32,000 nt of DNA from Breznakia blatticola (GCF_004365815.1 NZ_SODD01000023.1:1-32000); one strand, 5' to 3'; shown: positions 6,556 through 12,498, counted from the stretch's first letter. A program made the numbers and translations. The notes: generated by a model from the sequence alone, not told the origin.

Positions 6556-6631
6556 AATAAAAACCGAGTCTACTACGAACATAAAAACACTATTTATGTT
6601 TGTTAAGTCTAGCCCGGTTTGGTAACTATCT
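6556..6631 (-). promoter_or_regulatory. RAT-like element overlapping an intra-operon terminator (between the antiterminator and EIIBC)
   Basis: Minus strand AGATAGTTACCAAACCGGGCTAGACTT (6631-6605) resembles the RAT consensus GGATTGTTAC..GGCAAGACC. Its 3' half forms the 5' arm of a long interrupted hairpin (outer CCGGG/CTCGG, inner ACAAACATAAA/TTTATGTTCGT) followed by TTTTTATTT. Confidence 0.5.
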
Positions 6632-7478
6632 TACTTTTATCTAGTAAATTATTGATATGAATAATTAGGTATCCCTTTTCTTCATTATTCACTTCAATTT
6701 TGTAATTGAAATCTAAATACTCGCTAATTAATTCCACACATTTTGTTGTTTCTGGATATTGTACTTTCATCATACGATATACAAAATCCTTATCTCCATA
6801 TTCCACATCATTTTCCGCGAAGACTCTTGAACTAAAGTATTTCAAGTGGGTTAAGAAACGTTCATAATACACAGATTCTTGATCTAATGTAAATTCGAAG
6901 TACGTTTCAACTATTTCTATTACCTTTTTAATCAACATAACACTATCACTTGTTGGCTTATTAATATCAACTCCTGCTAAATTCAGAATATGAAATGCAA
7001 TAAATCCAGCTTCATCCAGCGGTAATTCAATTTCATACAATTCATTTGCTTTGCGAATTGCTTTTAAACCAATTGCAAATTCATTTGGATAAAAACGTTT
7101 TACTTCATTCAACATTTGATTTGGTAAAAGAATATGATTTTGTGCACGTTCTACCGCATTTGCGAGGTGATCTGCCAAACTAATATATGCAATGGTAGTT
7201 GTTTTTACACCAAGTTGTTCTTCTGCATAATCTAGTATATTCACAGCTAAATCAATGAAATCAGAATTGATATTCTCAATAATATCCATATAGCGAGTTT
7301 TTTCTCTTCCCTTTAAGACGAACTCTTTTTCAACTTTGTCCTTATCGACAAAATCTCCAACTTTCTTCTTAAAAGAGATTCCACTACCCATCAATACAAT
7401 TTCTGAGTCTTTATCATGTGAAGCGACAACATTATTATTAATGATGCGACTAATCACATATCCTTTTTCATTTAACAT
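6609..7478 (-). CDS. BglG/LicT-family PRD-containing transcription antiterminator
   Basis: 289 aa. The N-terminal CAT domain reads VISRIINNNVVASHDKDSEIVLMGSGISFKKKVGD and is followed by two PRD-like halves (ISLADHLANAVERA; FLTHLKYF). Confidence 0.9.
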   Translation of the reverse strand: MLNEKGYVISRIINNNVVASHDKDSEIVLMGSGISFKKKVGDFVDKDKVEKEFVLKGREKTRYMDIIENINSDFIDLAVNILDYAEEQLGVKTTTIAYISLADHLANAVERAQNHILLPNQMLNEVKRFYPNEFAIGLKAIRKANELYEIELPLDEAGFIAFHILNLAGVDINKPTSDSVMLIKKVIEIVETYFEFTLDQESVYYERFLTHLKYFSSRVFAENDVEYGDKDFVYRMMKVQYPETTKCVELISEYLDFNYKIEVNNEEKGYLIIHINNLLDKSKIVTKPG

Positions 7479-7992: not shown

Positions 7993-8042
7993 TAAAAAAC
8001 AAAAAAGACCAATACCGAAAAAATAATTTCGATGCTGATCTT
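7993..8042 (-). terminator. Leader terminator of the EIIA-antiterminator-EIIBC operon
   Basis: Minus strand AAGATCAGCATCGAAA-ttat-TTTCGGTATTGGTCTT (Watson-Crick plus G-U pairs) is followed by TTTTGTTTTTT. The 5' arm overlaps the RAT 3' end. Confidence 0.7.
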
Positions 8043-8063
8043 GCCTACTTAAAGTAACAATTC
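8037..8063 (-). promoter_or_regulatory. RAT (ribonucleic antiterminator) target of a BglG/LicT-type antiterminator
   Basis: Minus strand GAATTGTTACTTTAAGTAGGCAAGATC compares with B. subtilis RATs GGATTGTTACTG..CAGGCAAGACC. It sits just downstream of a consensus promoter and overlaps the terminator arm. Confidence 0.75.
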
Positions 8064-8078
8064 AAACTATCTATTTTC

Positions 8079-8230: not shown

Positions 8231-9667
8231 CTAGTTATTATGTTTCATTTGCTTTCCTAAAATGGATTCTAAATGTTCAACAATAGCACCTGCATTAGGT
8301 CCATATACAATTTGTATTTCATCACCAAACTGCATATATTCAATTGCCCCTGTTTGTTTCAATAATTCAAAATTAAATGCTCCAGGATTATGTAGATGAA
8401 AACGTACTCTTGTAATACAACAGTCGATTGCTTGTACATTGTTCATTCCGCCAACTGCATATATCAATGCTGTGCATATTGTATCAATTTCAGTATTTTG
8501 CAATGGTGTTGTCACTCGATGATCCAGTTCTATTTCCCGCCCTAGCGTATGCAAGTTATTGCGTTTAATGATGTACGTAAATCCAAAATAATACGCAATG
8601 GCTAGTACAACACCCATAACTAAAAGCATAAGCGGCATTTTTGTAAATGGCATCTGTAAACTTAACATAAAGTCGATAAATCCTGCACTGAAACTAAATC
8701 CTGCAATCCACTGAAACTGTGCAGCAATAAATACTGAAATTCCAGTTATAGCTGCATGCACTAAGTATAATTGTGGAGCGATAAACATAAACGAGAACTC
8801 TAAAGGTTCTGTCAGTCCAGTAAAAAATGAAGCGAACGCAGCTGATAATAAAAATGAGCGTACTTTATTTTTATTTTGTGGATATGCAGTTCTAAGCATC
8901 GCAAGTGCAGCTGCTGGCAAACCAAACATCATCACTGGAAAAAAACCGGCTTGATACATCCCTGTAACTCCATAAGTTCCTTGACTTGACCAAAAGTTTC
9001 CAATATCATTAATCCCCACTACATCAAACCAAAATACGGAATTAAGTGGATGATGCATTCCAATTGGAATTAAAAGTCGATTAAAAAATGCATAAATACC
9101 CGCACCTAATGGTCCTAATGAACTTATAAAATCACCAAACTGGATAAGCTTATTATAGATAAATGGCCATACAAAAATTAAGATACAACATAATCCTAAT
9201 GAAACAATCAATAAAGTAAGTAAGAGTATTACATTCTCATTTAACGTATCTAAGTGTAATTTATGTAATCGATTGTATACAGCAGAAGCCACAACTCCTG
9301 AAAGTATTCCAATGAACTGATTATCGATATGCTCAAATGGTTGATTAAAGTTATCGACTGGAAAATCGTACATATCAATTCTTTGTTGGGCGAGCACATT
9401 GGTTATTATTAAGAATACGAAGAGGCCTGCAAAAGCACTAATCCCCTTGTGATGATCACTTAATCCATAGGCGACACCAATGGCAAAAGCAACTGGCATA
9501 AATCCTAAAATTGCTTCACCAGAAGTACGTAAAATGACACTAAGAAAATGGACAAAGGTAGCATCCACACGTCCTAGCATGGCTCCAATACCAATTAAAA
9601 TAGCGGCAATTGGAAAAATTGCAATCGGTAATAATAATGCTTTTCCGATTTTATGAAGATAGTTCAT
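8231..9667 (-). CDS. PTS glucose/maltose/NAG-family EIICB permease
   Basis: 478 aa with EIIC motifs PIGMHHPLN and GLTEPLEFSFMF. The C-terminal EIIB reads AVGGMNNVQAIDCCITRVRF. The start overlaps the antiterminator stop (TAATG). Confidence 0.88.
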   Translation of the reverse strand: MNYLHKIGKALLLPIAIFPIAAILIGIGAMLGRVDATFVHFLSVILRTSGEAILGFMPVAFAIGVAYGLSDHHKGISAFAGLFVFLIITNVLAQQRIDMYDFPVDNFNQPFEHIDNQFIGILSGVVASAVYNRLHKLHLDTLNENVILLLTLLIVSLGLCCILIFVWPFIYNKLIQFGDFISSLGPLGAGIYAFFNRLLIPIGMHHPLNSVFWFDVVGINDIGNFWSSQGTYGVTGMYQAGFFPVMMFGLPAAALAMLRTAYPQNKNKVRSFLLSAAFASFFTGLTEPLEFSFMFIAPQLYLVHAAITGISVFIAAQFQWIAGFSFSAGFIDFMLSLQMPFTKMPLMLLVMGVVLAIAYYFGFTYIIKRNNLHTLGREIELDHRVTTPLQNTEIDTICTALIYAVGGMNNVQAIDCCITRVRFHLHNPGAFNFELLKQTGAIEYMQFGDEIQIVYGPNAGAIVEHLESILGKQMKHNN

Positions 9668-10497
9668 TAGATACTCACAATCTTATTAATATGAATCATC
9701 AAATATACAAGTTCATCTTTCGTAAGTGTATAATGATAATTCAATTTCACAATATCAAAAATATTCTCTACACATAACTCCATCTTCTCATGTTTATTAA
9801 TAAGTAAAGTATACATTTGATCAAGGTTTAATGGTTCTTTTGTGTCCTTGATAAATATATGTTGTGCTAGAAACTTCAAATGTGTTAATAATCTTGAAGT
9901 ATCAAGTGATTCATCATTAAACGAAATTCCAAAGACATTTTCAATAATCGTTTGCACATCTTTAACAAAAGCAACAATACGTTTTGCATCACGCACTTTA
10001 TTTCCTACAGTTGCATTCACAATATGCATCGCAATATAACTTGCTTCATCCTTTGGAAATTGAATTCCCGTATTTGCTTGAATCAAACGTAATGCCCACA
10101 AACCAATACGATATTCTTCTTTATATAAACTTTTGATTTCATCGTGCATTAAGTTTGGAATTTCCAACCCTCGTTTTTTACGATCCGCTGCATACCATAA
10201 ATGGTCTGTTAGCGAGATAAATATCTGGTTAGATAATTCTATTTCCATTTCATTAACCGCTTTCGTAGCTATCGCTTCAGCTATTTGAAAATACATAATC
10301 GGAGTACGATTTAGTAATTCAGCAAATTGCTTTTTTTGTTGGTCTTCAAATGAATAGACCTTTTCCACACGATTTTGATCTACTTCATCGTGTACTTTCC
10401 GATTAAATCCGATTCCATTCCCTGTAACGACATATTCGTTATCACCTTCTACAGCAACAACGACATTGTTGTTATAAATTCGACTTATCTTCATCAT
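9667..10497 (-). CDS. BglG/LicT-family PRD-containing transcription antiterminator (second copy)
   Basis: 276 aa. The CAT domain reads KISRIYNNNVVVAVEGDNEYVVTGNGIGFNRKV, with PRD-like ISLTDHLWYAADR and LLTHLKFLAQH. The start could be the second ATG at 10494. Confidence 0.88.
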   Translation of the reverse strand: MMKISRIYNNNVVVAVEGDNEYVVTGNGIGFNRKVHDEVDQNRVEKVYSFEDQQKKQFAELLNRTPIMYFQIAEAIATKAVNEMEIELSNQIFISLTDHLWYAADRKKRGLEIPNLMHDEIKSLYKEEYRIGLWALRLIQANTGIQFPKDEASYIAMHIVNATVGNKVRDAKRIVAFVKDVQTIIENVFGISFNDESLDTSRLLTHLKFLAQHIFIKDTKEPLNLDQMYTLLINKHEKMELCVENIFDIVKLNYHYTLTKDELVYLMIHINKIVSI

Positions 10498-10503
10498 TCA
10501 CCT

Positions 10504-11769
10504 CTATATTAATAATGACGCATTTGCTTGCGTAATGTATGCGTCTAATGCATCATACAATGCTTTTGGTGCAACCCCTTGCACTATCATTTCATTATCG
10601 TGTATTTCAACTTGTATACTTTTTGGTAGTTTCTCTATTTCGTTTTTTCGAATCAACATTTCTTCTTCTAATGTGATATATAATTTCTCTTCCAAAATGT
10701 GAAGTGTAATAATATTTTCTATTCCACCTACAACATGGATAAACTGTGCAACTTGCTTTTCATCAAGTTGTATACGTTGTCCTTTATGAATCAAATCATC
10801 AATATGATTTCTAGCAAGATAGAAGCTTATCACACACAAGAAACTTCCACCGATAAGCATGCTTACCATATTTGGTTGACTGATGATTTCCCATATCCAT
10901 AATATACTTTGCAACACATAAAACAGTAACATATATAACGGATTAAACGTAAATAGTAGAAATTGAAACACCAATGGATCACCTTGAATCATGGCACCAA
11001 TTCCAACAAGTAAAAATACAAGTCTCCATTCTTTTAAGGCTGCTTTATGTTTACTATTATACAAAAGTATAAGTACTAGTGGAATCACGATCTGCATCAA
11101 AATTGTTTGGTTTGTAAAGAAGATGGCATGTTCTTGCAATAATTCTAGAGATGAGATCCCAATAAATGACAACAAGACCTGTAACCACATATATACTATA
11201 GGACCTATAGTTTCTATATTTCGTACTTGCAACAGCCATGCAACTGCTCGATACATAAACGGCCAAATAATGATAAGTAATGAACCGATAATTATCATTA
11301 CAAGTCCGGTAATGATTGGTACCAAGCGTTTTCCTGAAAAGAATGCTAACCCGCTTGGTAGTTGGACATTATAAAATCGATTATATATACTTGCTCCAAG
11401 TAATCCACACATAATTCCCATGCATCCATTTTGAATACTTGTATAATCAAATTGAAGTACAAATGAACAACCTTCCAATGCTTTAGCAAGTGTTTCATTG
11501 GATGCAATATGAATCAGTACTACATAACCAATCATTCCACTTAATACACTTGTACCATCTTTTCGTTTTGCAAAGAACATCGCAAAACTAGCCGCATATA
11601 ACAATGGCAAATATTGTATATATGCACGATAGGTTTCCATAAACATTCTACCTACATGAAATGAAAATGATGTATTTATAAAATCACCAAAGACATAAAG
11701 ACCATACAAAATTGGAACAAAAAGGGTTGGATACAACAAACTTTTTGTATATTTTTTTACAAATTCCAT
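10504..11769 (-). CDS. PTS EIIC-EIIB-like membrane protein with degenerate catalytic motifs (probably not a phosphotransferase)
   Basis: 421 aa and multi-TM. The C-terminal domain aligns with EIIB (VVGGIENI...), but the C-x-T-R-L-R signature reads L-E-E-K-L-Y. The EIIC GITEP motif reads IQGDP and the GxHH motif is absent. SD GGGAGGAG is strong and the frame is intact. Confidence 0.7.
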   Translation of the reverse strand: MEFVKKYTKSLLYPTLFVPILYGLYVFGDFINTSFSFHVGRMFMETYRAYIQYLPLLYAASFAMFFAKRKDGTSVLSGMIGYVVLIHIASNETLAKALEGCSFVLQFDYTSIQNGCMGIMCGLLGASIYNRFYNVQLPSGLAFFSGKRLVPIITGLVMIIIGSLLIIIWPFMYRAVAWLLQVRNIETIGPIVYMWLQVLLSFIGISSLELLQEHAIFFTNQTILMQIVIPLVLILLYNSKHKAALKEWRLVFLLVGIGAMIQGDPLVFQFLLFTFNPLYMLLFYVLQSILWIWEIISQPNMVSMLIGGSFLCVISFYLARNHIDDLIHKGQRIQLDEKQVAQFIHVVGGIENIITLHILEEKLYITLEEEMLIRKNEIEKLPKSIQVEIHDNEMIVQGVAPKALYDALDAYITQANASLLI

Positions 11770-11824: not shown

Positions 11825-11853
11825 TTGACATTTTTTTTGGAATCAACTACGCT
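11825..11853 (+). promoter_or_regulatory. Putative sigma-A promoter of the plus-strand EIIA gene
   Basis: TTGACA (11825-11830), a 17-nt spacer and TACGCT (11848-11853). SD AGAGG lies at 11866-11870. Confidence 0.45.
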
Positions 11854-11878: not shown

Positions 11879-12361
11879 ATGTTTCATTTGTTAGGAAGAA
11901 AAAACAAACGAGTTCGCGTATATGCTCCAATTCAAGGTAGTATTGTTTCTTTAGATGAAATTATTGACCCTGTATTTTCACAACGTCTAGTTGGCGAAGG
12001 AGTTGCCATCAAATCAAATTCTGGCACCATTTATGCACCAGTAGATGGAACAATTCAATGGGCAATCCGTTCGAAACATGCCATTTCCATTCAAACAAAA
12101 CACAATGCAGTCATTTTAATTCATATTGGCTTACAAACCGATTCATCAAAAAGTGAATCCTATACACCGCTTGTTCCCAACGGAACAAACGTAAAAGCTG
12201 GTGATGAAATATTACACTTCTCACCTAATGAATATGAAGGACAAAACAACCATGTGATGATTCCGGTTATCTTACTAGATTCTCAGTTTTATCAAATGAG
12301 TAAAGTGAAAACAAGTGGATCTGCAGTACAAAAGAAAACAATACTTTTTGAATTTAAATAG
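11879..12361 (+). CDS. PTS EIIA-Glc-family protein, divergent variant
   Basis: 160 aa. Both His positions are kept (SKHAIS...VILIHIG), but the following segment reads GLQTDSSKSESY instead of the GIDTVNLQG(E/K)GF seen in the two other EIIA genes of this window. It is the only plus-strand gene. Confidence 0.8.
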   Translation: MFHLLGRKNKRVRVYAPIQGSIVSLDEIIDPVFSQRLVGEGVAIKSNSGTIYAPVDGTIQWAIRSKHAISIQTKHNAVILIHIGLQTDSSKSESYTPLVPNGTNVKAGDEILHFSPNEYEGQNNHVMIPVILLDSQFYQMSKVKTSGSAVQKKTILFEFK

Positions 12362-12369
12362 ATAAGGTT

Positions 12370-12398
12370 AGATTGTTACCAAGAAATTGAGCAAAACT
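12370..12398 (+). promoter_or_regulatory. RAT-like antiterminator target with no downstream plus-strand gene
   Basis: AGATTGTTACCAAGAAATTGAGCAAAACT compares with GGATTGTTACTG..CAGGCAAAACC. The upper stem is CAA/TTG with loop GAAA. The 3' part AGCAAAAC is the 5' arm of the terminator at 12390-12444. Confidence 0.6.
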
Positions 12399-12444
12399 GA
12401 CGTAATCACCTACAGGTGTTTTTACGCATGTTTTGCTTTTTTTT
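12390..12444 (+). terminator. Rho-independent terminator after the plus-strand EIIA gene
   Basis: A long hairpin AGCAAAAC..CGTAA.CACCT-ac-AGGTG..TTACG..GTTTTGCT is followed by T8. Confidence 0.75.
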
Positions 12445-12498
12445 ACGCGAACTTGTTACGAAAAAGAATTCACAGAGACATGCATTCTTTTTTTGTAG

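Follow-up and report, generated by a model that had tools for sequence, protein, structure and literature searches.

A RAT/terminator switch behind a stand-alone EIIA gene of Breznakia: a conserved cassette edge and candidate regulated 3′ end

In a 32,000-nt stretch of the Breznakia blatticola genome (GCF_004365815.1, NZ_SODD01000023.1:1-32000; hereafter the window), a ribonucleic antiterminator (RAT) that overlaps an intrinsic terminator, T1, lies directly behind the gene for a stand-alone EIIA component of the sugar phosphotransferase system (PTS), with no gene in the same orientation after it. We show here that this element is a genuine RAT-terminator switch of the LicT/SacY class, and that the first nucleotides beyond T1 are complementary to codons 10-14 of the EIIA gene, a complementarity that is conserved. 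The explanation that we favour, to which we give a probability of roughly 0.45, is that the conserved switch, standing at the edge of a PTS cassette, exerts an antiterminator-gated feedback on the EIIA mRNA. While the anatomy and the conservation are solid, the function is what we infer.

Anatomy of the switch

The genome of B. blatticola (genus Breznakia, Erysipelotrichaceae; 2.46 Mb in 98 contigs) was compared with those of ‘Erysipelotrichaceae bacterium MTC7’ (hereafter MTC7), Breznakia sp. PF5-3 and B. pachnodae, and these make up the four Breznakia species of this study. Seven Logan contigs (L047-L053) from a close relative with a 97% identical EIIA, and one contig of the MTC7 type (L054) from the European Nucleotide Archive (ENA), were further sources. 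Where we speak of three lineages, B. blatticola, L047 and MTC7 are meant.

The RAT core begins 8 nt past the EIIA stop codon (TAG, 12359-12361; Table 1). Since Rfam contains no RAT family and gave noise matches only, at both gathering and permissive thresholds, we built our own covariance model, R1, from 17 other RATs (13 from Breznakia, three from Clostridia and one from Erysipelothrix), the tested RAT and its orthologue being excluded. The R1 family alignment has 11 pairs by RNAalifold, four of them with compensatory changes. The covariance model was used instead of statistics on an IUPAC pattern, which were uninformative, 28 of 100 shuffled sequences matching the pattern at two mismatches or fewer. 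With R1, which had not been trained on it, this orphan RAT scores 38.2 bits (E 2.8e-6 across the whole genome); it is the second best match of the genome, in which only three strong ones occur, itself included. Its MTC7 orthologue scores 32.9 bits.

On its own, the RAT is predicted to fold with -6.6 kcal/mol and to have an extended lower stem, GUUAG/CUGAC (RNAfold). The loop is a GAAA tetraloop, and both A3 and A26, the LicT determinants in B. subtilis (PMC1635312), are present, which makes the element LicT-type. The apical stem is CAA/UUG, as the original prediction had stated, but the pairing below it has to be corrected: C10 is opposite A21, a C·A mismatch in place of the C-G pair of canonical RATs. 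The same type of mismatch is found in one other Breznakia module.

For 12362-12450, the predicted structure is a long hairpin, GAGCAAAACUG...GUUUUGCU(U), with U8 directly after it, a minimum free energy of -24 kcal/mol and a z score of -3.5; none of 200 shuffled sequences was equally stable. Because the RAT and T1 share 12389-12402, the two folds are mutually exclusive. Folding and covariance analysis, which had been proposed as checks, thus uphold the prediction of a RAT-pattern sequence at 12370-12398 whose 3′ half serves as the 5′ arm of a T8-tailed terminator. T1 is kept in MTC7, the differences falling in the apical loop and at sites of the 3′ arm. We consider it highly probable that the RAT and T1 form a real, functional switch. 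A scan of the window for promoter and terminator consensus sequences picked up neither T1 nor the EIIA promoter; reading of the sequence suggests a promoter ahead of EIIA (Table 1), a 5′ untranslated region (UTR) of about 18 nt counted from it, and AGAGG as the Shine-Dalgarno (SD) sequence.

Table 1. Coordinates of the features discussed in the text, counted from the first nucleotide of the window
Feature	Position	Strand	Basis and remarks
Promoter-RAT-terminator leader, canonical, G26 type	8032-8068	-	R1 43.9 bits; precedes the EIIA-antiterminator-EIIBC operon
EIICB, N-acetylglucosamine (GlcNAc) type	8231-9667	-	PTS-II-BC-nag 464 bits, under cut-off; best match is the GlcNAc-specific model
BglG/LicT-family antiterminator (AT)	9667-10497	-	PF03123 and PF00874; LicT NCBIfam 262 bits, under cut-off
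EIICx	10504-11769	-	First gene of the operon divergent from EIIA; Pfam, first two thirds of the EIIC profile only
Putative EIIA promoter	11825-11853	+	Inferred by sequence reading only; TTGACA 11825-11830, 17-nt spacer, weak -10 TACGCT 11848-11853
Stand-alone PTS EIIA (glucose family, EIIA-Glc), 160 aa	11879-12361	+	PF00358 E 4.9e-36; TIGR00830 103.9 bits, over cut-off
5′ arm of inverted repeat I2, AACGAGTTCGCGTA	11907-11920	+	EIIA codons 10-14 (+29 to +42)
RAT hairpin, core AGATTGTTACCAAGAAATTGAGCAAAACT at 12370-12398	12366-12402	+	Model R1; RNAfold
Intrinsic terminator T1	12389-12444	+	20-bp interrupted hairpin 12389-12437, U8 12437-12444; RNAfold, -20 to -24 kcal/mol
3′ arm of inverted repeat I2, TACGCGAACTTGTT	12444-12457	+	First nucleotide is the final U of the T1 U-tract; pairs with 11907-11920
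T2 (A-tract/hairpin/U-tract)	12461-12497	.	Folding; directly past the stop of the MFS gene
Convergent major facilitator superfamily (MFS) transporter, 386 aa	12499-13659	-	PF12832 and PF07690

The position of the switch is atypical. RATs are leader or intercistronic sites upstream of the genes that they regulate on the same strand, and the orphan RAT has no such gene: among plus-strand open reading frames (ORFs) of at least 60 aa past the switch, we found a single 67-aa frame within the antisense of the MFS gene, in agreement with the earlier statement that no plus-strand coding potential follows. That EIIA is the sole plus-strand gene of the window also stands, although the count of 27 genes becomes 26 long ORFs here, the other 25 being on the minus strand. 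In 120 other genomes sampled from the family, all of the strong RAT matches outside the genus (14/14) are ordinary leaders, 18-78 nt ahead of a PTS or antiterminator gene; a RAT at a 3′ end is therefore unusual for the class. Cognate partners are encoded in the genome, namely a PTS permease and antiterminators composed of a co-antiterminator (CAT) domain and PTS regulation domains (PRDs; PF03123 with PF00874 at 9667-10497 and 6609-7478). A RAT acting as a regulated 3′ end was not found described in the literature, and the words ‘antisense’, ‘orphan’, ‘decoy’ and ‘convergent’ do not occur in a review of RNA-binding antiterminators (PMC12591593).

By sequence reading, no promoter is recognisable inside the EIIA 3′ end of B. 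blatticola or MTC7, where PF5-3 and B. pachnodae have one. Having no promoter of its own in these two genomes, the module is thus fed by EIIA transcription. At somewhat less than even odds, the EIIA mRNA is monocistronic and the RAT-terminator switch is its regulated 3′ end.

Conservation of the switch and its cassette in Breznakia

Between B. blatticola and MTC7, the leader and the RAT 5′ half are identical at 25/27 positions (27/27 in L047), and both changes fall in the apical loop, leaving 19/19 outside it. Directly after the T1 hairpin, a block formed by the U-tract and ACGCGAACT (12438-12453) is identical at 16/16 positions, and identity then drops to 28% over the 45 nt that follow. With 57% as the background identity, the RAT half has a binomial P value of 6e-5 and the block one of 1e-4. 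By region, identity to MTC7 is 57% in the promoter and 5′ UTR, 73% in the EIIA coding sequence, 83% in T1, 28% in the rest of the spacer with T2, and 62% in the MFS coding sequence; the proteins are 72% (EIIA), 65% (MFS), 88% (AT) and 49% (EIICx) identical. As the RAT 5′ half lies outside the terminator and is conserved nonetheless, it must be under purifying selection in its own right. Conservation of the RAT in syntenic loci, a check set beforehand, is therefore what the comparison with MTC7 and L047 returns.

These figures bear on the possibility that the RAT is vestigial, that is, the remnant of a promoter-RAT-terminator-noncoding RNA unit that has lost its promoter and RNA and of which the terminator alone serves EIIA, and perhaps MFS. 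The homologues in PF5-3 and B. pachnodae do have a promoter and a helix-closed segment of 220-306 nt, both absent in B. blatticola, L047 has lost the RAT of another module while retaining its terminator core, and the C·A mismatch and weak apical stem would fit a decaying element. Yet it is the non-terminator half of the RAT that is best conserved, against 28-57% in neutral spacer, and the divergence of EIIA and MFS at the protein level excludes a recent transfer as the source of this identity. We thus regard a vestigial RAT as unlikely; were the RAT inert, the locus would exemplify the switch remnants left by cassette rearrangement.

The gene order, with MFS convergent on EIIA-RAT/T1 and EIICx-AT-EIICB divergent from it, is the same in MTC7, the seven Logan contigs and the ENA contig. 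More widely, EIIA is followed by a RAT/terminator in B. blatticola, L047-L053, MTC7/L054, PF5-3 and B. pachnodae, and hence in all four Breznakia species; the EIIA orthologues are 97%, 72%, 35% and 38% identical and both His residues are invariant. In PF5-3 and B. pachnodae, EIIA is likewise divergent from EIICx-AT-EIICB and a homologous RAT/terminator stands behind it, there with a promoter of its own (TTGACA-16/17-TAAAAT). Beyond this module come the 220-306-nt segment, which a 23-bp helix closes, and then a PP-loop ATPase gene that has its own promoter; no MFS gene turned up in these two genomes. The MurB and PP-loop ATPase genes are adjacent in B. blatticola (C2:50737-52471, L113) and in MTC7 (C10, L114) and have the cassette between them in PF5-3 and B. 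pachnodae, which indicates that the cassette moved as a unit within the genus. As the same EIIA-RAT-terminator edge occurs with differing neighbours, the module is part of the cassette and is not tied to the gene beyond. In all probability, then, RAT/T1 is the end-piece of a GlcNAc-type PTS/antiterminator cassette.

A paralogous MTC7 cassette (contig 17) has the divergent promoter-RAT-terminator and no EIIA. In Longicatena, Faecalicoccus and two metagenome-assembled genomes, EIICx-AT-EIICB occurs without a leader RAT and without an adjacent EIIA. A DNA pattern scan of metagenomes and a scan with an EIIA profile found no further lineages, and a search of 5.8 billion proteins yielded two close EIIA relatives only.

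The sister modules of PF5-3 and B. pachnodae share the ATAGATAAGGTT leader; the 5′ arm of their terminator is ACGAAATCAC, against ACGTAATCAC in B. blatticola. The nucleotides directly past this terminator form one arm of a long helix, of which the partner lies downstream (pair probability 0.98-1.0). The arms, TCTAnnnTAGTACTTGTTTCTC ... GAGAAACAAGTACTAnnnTAGA, make about 23 bp (PF5-3 L014:9733-10100; B. pachnodae L096:3510-3935) with two compensatory pairs, GATT/AATC in PF5-3 versus ACTT/AAGT in B. pachnodae, and are conserved, while the interior of the segment is not. The closed segment could encode a structured RNA, serve as a site for RNase III or be invertible DNA. The 530-nt gap behind the PF5-3 module holds no pseudogene remnants. 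We also considered the box TAGTACTTGTTTCTC as the end of a miniature inverted-repeat transposable element (MITE) or insertion sequence (IS), and rejected this: each genome has one or two locus-specific copies, and B. blatticola has none. Two further promoter-RAT-terminator modules with the same post-terminator box were seen in MTC7 (C12:56469-56495, L065; C17:39486-39512, L073), with no sugar gene nearby; one is 344 nt ahead of a 385-aa ORF that shows no evident connection with sugar metabolism, though it was compared with no family library, and the other, located where a contig ends, diverges from a paralogous EIICx-AT-EIICB-GH84 cassette.

Own-promoter modules with no nearby gene, in PF5-3, B. 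pachnodae and at other loci, and a RAT conserved without a sense target would both suit a decoy, in which the RAT in the 3′ UTR would titrate the antiterminator from its productive targets and so set a threshold. An analogue exists in the small RNA (sRNA) EutX/Rli55, which sequesters the ANTAR regulator EutV. A decoy, however, needs neither an overlapping terminator nor a conserved sequence past it, and RNA immunoprecipitation sequencing of the Enterococcus faecalis antiterminator NagY found no sRNA partner (PMC12502629). This role seems very unlikely for the B. blatticola RAT.

Pairing of the read-through tail with the EIIA coding start

An inverted-repeat scan identified I2, of which the two 14-nt arms are 93% complementary with one G·U pair (Table 1). 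This complementarity was not part of the original prediction. The 3′ arm lies past the end of T1, so that it is present in read-through RNA only and not in T1-terminated transcripts. Both arms stand in conserved sequence: the 3′ arm is inside the 16/16 block, and the 5′ arm falls within the longest stretch of identical nucleotides in the aligned EIIA genes of B. blatticola and MTC7 (24 nt; the runner-up has 14). In MTC7, a U-to-C change turns the G·U into a G-C pair and the outer pairs are lost, leaving an 11-bp core, and an 11-bp core is found in L047 too. The predicted duplex energies are -20.0 kcal/mol in B. blatticola, -18.6 in MTC7 and -16.3 in L047. When the complete read-through mRNA of about 640-660 nt was folded by partition function, the pair probability of the helix was about 1.0 in B. 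blatticola and MTC7, whether or not the RAT was kept single-stranded. Among the GC-rich 10-mers of the window, 0.05% have a perfect reverse complement in the upstream 600 nt. In PF5-3 and B. pachnodae, we looked for an equivalent 5′-3′ pairing and rejected it: the post-terminator arm pairs with its downstream partner instead.

The arrangement, with a tail complementary to the beginning of its own mRNA, recalls icaR in Staphylococcus aureus, in which the 3′ UTR pairs with the 5′ region of the same mRNA. Unlike in icaR, the 3′ arm in Breznakia would be added only by regulated read-through, and its target is codons 10-14 and not the Shine-Dalgarno sequence.

From these elements we can propose the following sequence of events. 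In PRD regulation, an idle PTS leads to phosphorylation of the antiterminator, which is then inactive. Without inducer, T1 would thus form and the EIIA mRNA would end in a strong 3′ hairpin. When inducer or substrate is present, the antiterminator would bind the RAT, 14 nt of the T1 5′ arm would be sequestered and the polymerase would pass T1. The first 14 nt added (12444-12457) could then pair with EIIA codons 10-14 and enclose the ORF in a loop of about 530 nt, and transcription would end at T2 or leak into the MFS antisense. The output would be a post-transcriptional feedback on EIIA, of either sign, exerted on the stability of the mRNA, on its processing by RNase III or on elongation. That the 5′-3′ clamp is the selected output of the switch is a tentative proposal, and we advance still more cautiously the full picture, in which RAT switches make a regulated choice of 3′ end, the read-through tail clamps the coding start and EIIA feedback depends on sugar.

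Several observations count against this feedback. Covariation of the arms amounts to one G·U to G-C change in three lineages, the arms being nearly invariant. In energy the duplex stands out only modestly: natural 25-mers pair equally well with the EIIA mRNA in about 4-6% of cases in B. blatticola and MTC7 and in 24% in L047. Eight identical codons in a row have a chance probability of about 0.02, and N-terminal codons are generally conserved. The helix is clear of the Shine-Dalgarno sequence and the AUG, and SD accessibility is 0.48 versus 0.45, so that the ribosome-binding site is not occluded; moreover, ribosomes are able to unwind 14 bp. The affinity of the RAT could be low, given its C10·A21 mismatch and an apical stem of 2-3 bp. 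As partners, all nine CAT_RBD antiterminator genes of B. blatticola are candidates. Finally, the exact arrangement is seen in three lineages only.

The read-through RNA might instead act on the other strand. The original prediction had offered as one option a sugar-gated antisense RNA that modulates the MFS/hypothetical gene pair. Read-through would then lower MFS, and the hypothetical gene downstream of it, either by convergent interference, as polymerases collide, or because the RNAs form a duplex. MFS is indeed convergent directly behind the module in B. blatticola, L047 and MTC7, the RAT is under selection, and there is a precedent in the riboswitch-gated antisense RNA of the ubiG operon of Clostridium acetobutylicum (PMC2566862). 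Much depends on T2, probably the terminator of the MFS gene and one that could work bidirectionally. With -7.0 kcal/mol it is weak in B. blatticola, where a small stem indel makes it weaker than in the 97%-identical relative, and leakage into the MFS antisense would be greater there than in L047. Nevertheless, in each of the three lineages a T2 hairpin and U-tract separate T1 from the MFS stop, and they are strong in L047 (-16.7 kcal/mol) and MTC7 (-11.9 kcal/mol; its sequence cannot be aligned with that of B. blatticola). RAT antitermination is terminator-specific and not processive. Furthermore, PF5-3 and B. pachnodae keep the RAT with a PP-loop neighbour and without a detected MFS, so that switch and target are not linked there, and the 16/16 block with its complement in EIIA would be left unexplained. 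While possible, this option is weakened by T2 and by the changing neighbours, and we judge it rather unlikely.

The second option of the original prediction was an inverted EIIA-RAT cassette, and the repeat itself raises the related idea of a phase-variable segment (11921-12443) that would switch EIIA off: the 14-bp repeats flank most of EIIA together with RAT/T1, and fimS-type switches use repeats as short as these. A single orientation was found in 12/12 assemblies (B. blatticola, seven Logan contigs, MTC7, ENA, PF5-3 and B. pachnodae), a weak test in that it covers assemblies only. The left arm lies within the homologous EIIA N-terminus of all orthologues, so the present orientation is the native one; by sequence reading a flip would strip EIIA of its start codon, and a Pfam scan of ten neighbouring ORFs revealed no recombinase. 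No un-inverted relative was seen, the Longicatena and Faecalicoccus leaders being devoid of a RAT, and the module has its own promoter in two species. Comparison of orientation, which had been suggested as a check, thus went against the inversion: EIIA-RAT diverges from EIICx-AT-EIICB in all four Breznakia species and in nine further assemblies, and the paralogous cassette is laid out divergently as well. A DNA-level event, past or ongoing, is most improbable.

Related systems and neighbouring genes

The orphan RAT closely resembles the LicT/SacY/SacT attenuators of B. subtilis (bglPH, licS, sacB and sacPA): it has a 29-nt RAT of the form GATTGTTAC...GCAAAAC with two internal loops, A3 and A26, a 3′ half that doubles as part of an intrinsic terminator and a CAT-PRD antiterminator encoded next door, and its GAAA tetraloop is that of the bglP RAT. 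It differs from them in lying past a stop codon, in lacking both an own promoter and a sense gene to follow, in its 5-bp extended lower stem and in having C10·A21 for the C-G pair below the apical stem. It also differs from the sister modules, which occupy the same EIIA edge: the B. blatticola module lacks the promoter and the 220-306-nt RNA, and the partner of its post-terminator arm is upstream, in the EIIA coding sequence.

The closest characterised system is the NagY regulon of E. faecalis (nagY-nagE/hylA; PMC9981650, PMC12502629), which likewise combines a BglG/SacY antiterminator, a GlcNAc-type permease and glycan hydrolases; host-glycan hydrolases of family GH84 are found at the Breznakia cassettes of MTC7 and L047. 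RNase III cooperates with NagY (PMC12502629), and the Breznakia modules are flanked by long helices. NagY is autoregulated via a leader RAT, an element that is absent from the antiterminator operon of Breznakia. The search for the NagY regulon was made within 200 nt before target ATGs, and no RAT at a 3′ end was described (PMC12502629). The conditional terminator at the 3′ end of a convergent gene recalls the S-box/ubiG antisense unit (PMC2566862). It differs from riboswitch antisense units in its protein-bound RAT sensor, in a second hairpin ahead of the target and in a neighbouring gene that varies within the genus. The B12 riboswitch-AspocR pair of Listeria is a further case of a riboswitch-gated antisense RNA.

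RAT/antiterminator systems are textbook 5′ attenuators. If our proposal is right, PTS-sensing antiterminators would also set alternative 3′ ends and mRNA architecture, and RAT searches restricted to upstream regions would miss part of the regulons. With the sister modules, there would be a Breznakia-wide class of RATs with RNA structures, in place of downstream genes, as their outputs. The locus is also a candidate for a simple case of conditional 5′-3′ mRNA pairing, in a GlcNAc (host-glycan) cassette of gut bacteria.

As for the neighbouring genes, model R1 has no match in the EIICx-AT-EIICB leader, as had been predicted. EIICx is fast-evolving, its identity to MTC7 contrasting with that of the antiterminator, and its role may be sensing instead of transport; outside the genus, the search for full orthologues gave partial EIIC matches, or weak full-length ones (24-25% identity), only. 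Downstream of this operon is the second one, EIIA-antiterminator-EIIBC, with its antiterminator at 6609-7478. Both leader RATs of the cassette (8032-8068 and RAT2 of MTC7) carry G26 where the orphan RAT has A26, and the orphan may consequently answer to a different antiterminator. The MFS transporter matches the sugar-efflux subfamily TIGR00899 only remotely (34.8 bits; cut-off 522 bits).

In L047 (36-353), EIICB is followed by a GH84 N-acetylglucosaminidase gene in place of the EIIA-antiterminator-EIIBC operon, and the leader before this gene has kept a terminator core (TTACGAAATCAC...) and lost its RAT. Between the second antiterminator gene and EIIBC of B. blatticola, a weak RAT-like element on the minus strand (6600-6636; 22.3 bits, E 0.0034) shares sequence with a terminator-like hairpin. 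The third strong RAT of this genome (C45:5765-5801, L118; 35.3 bits) has its own promoter and terminator and lies about 95 nt ahead of a gene whose product has an N-terminus resembling a signal peptide.

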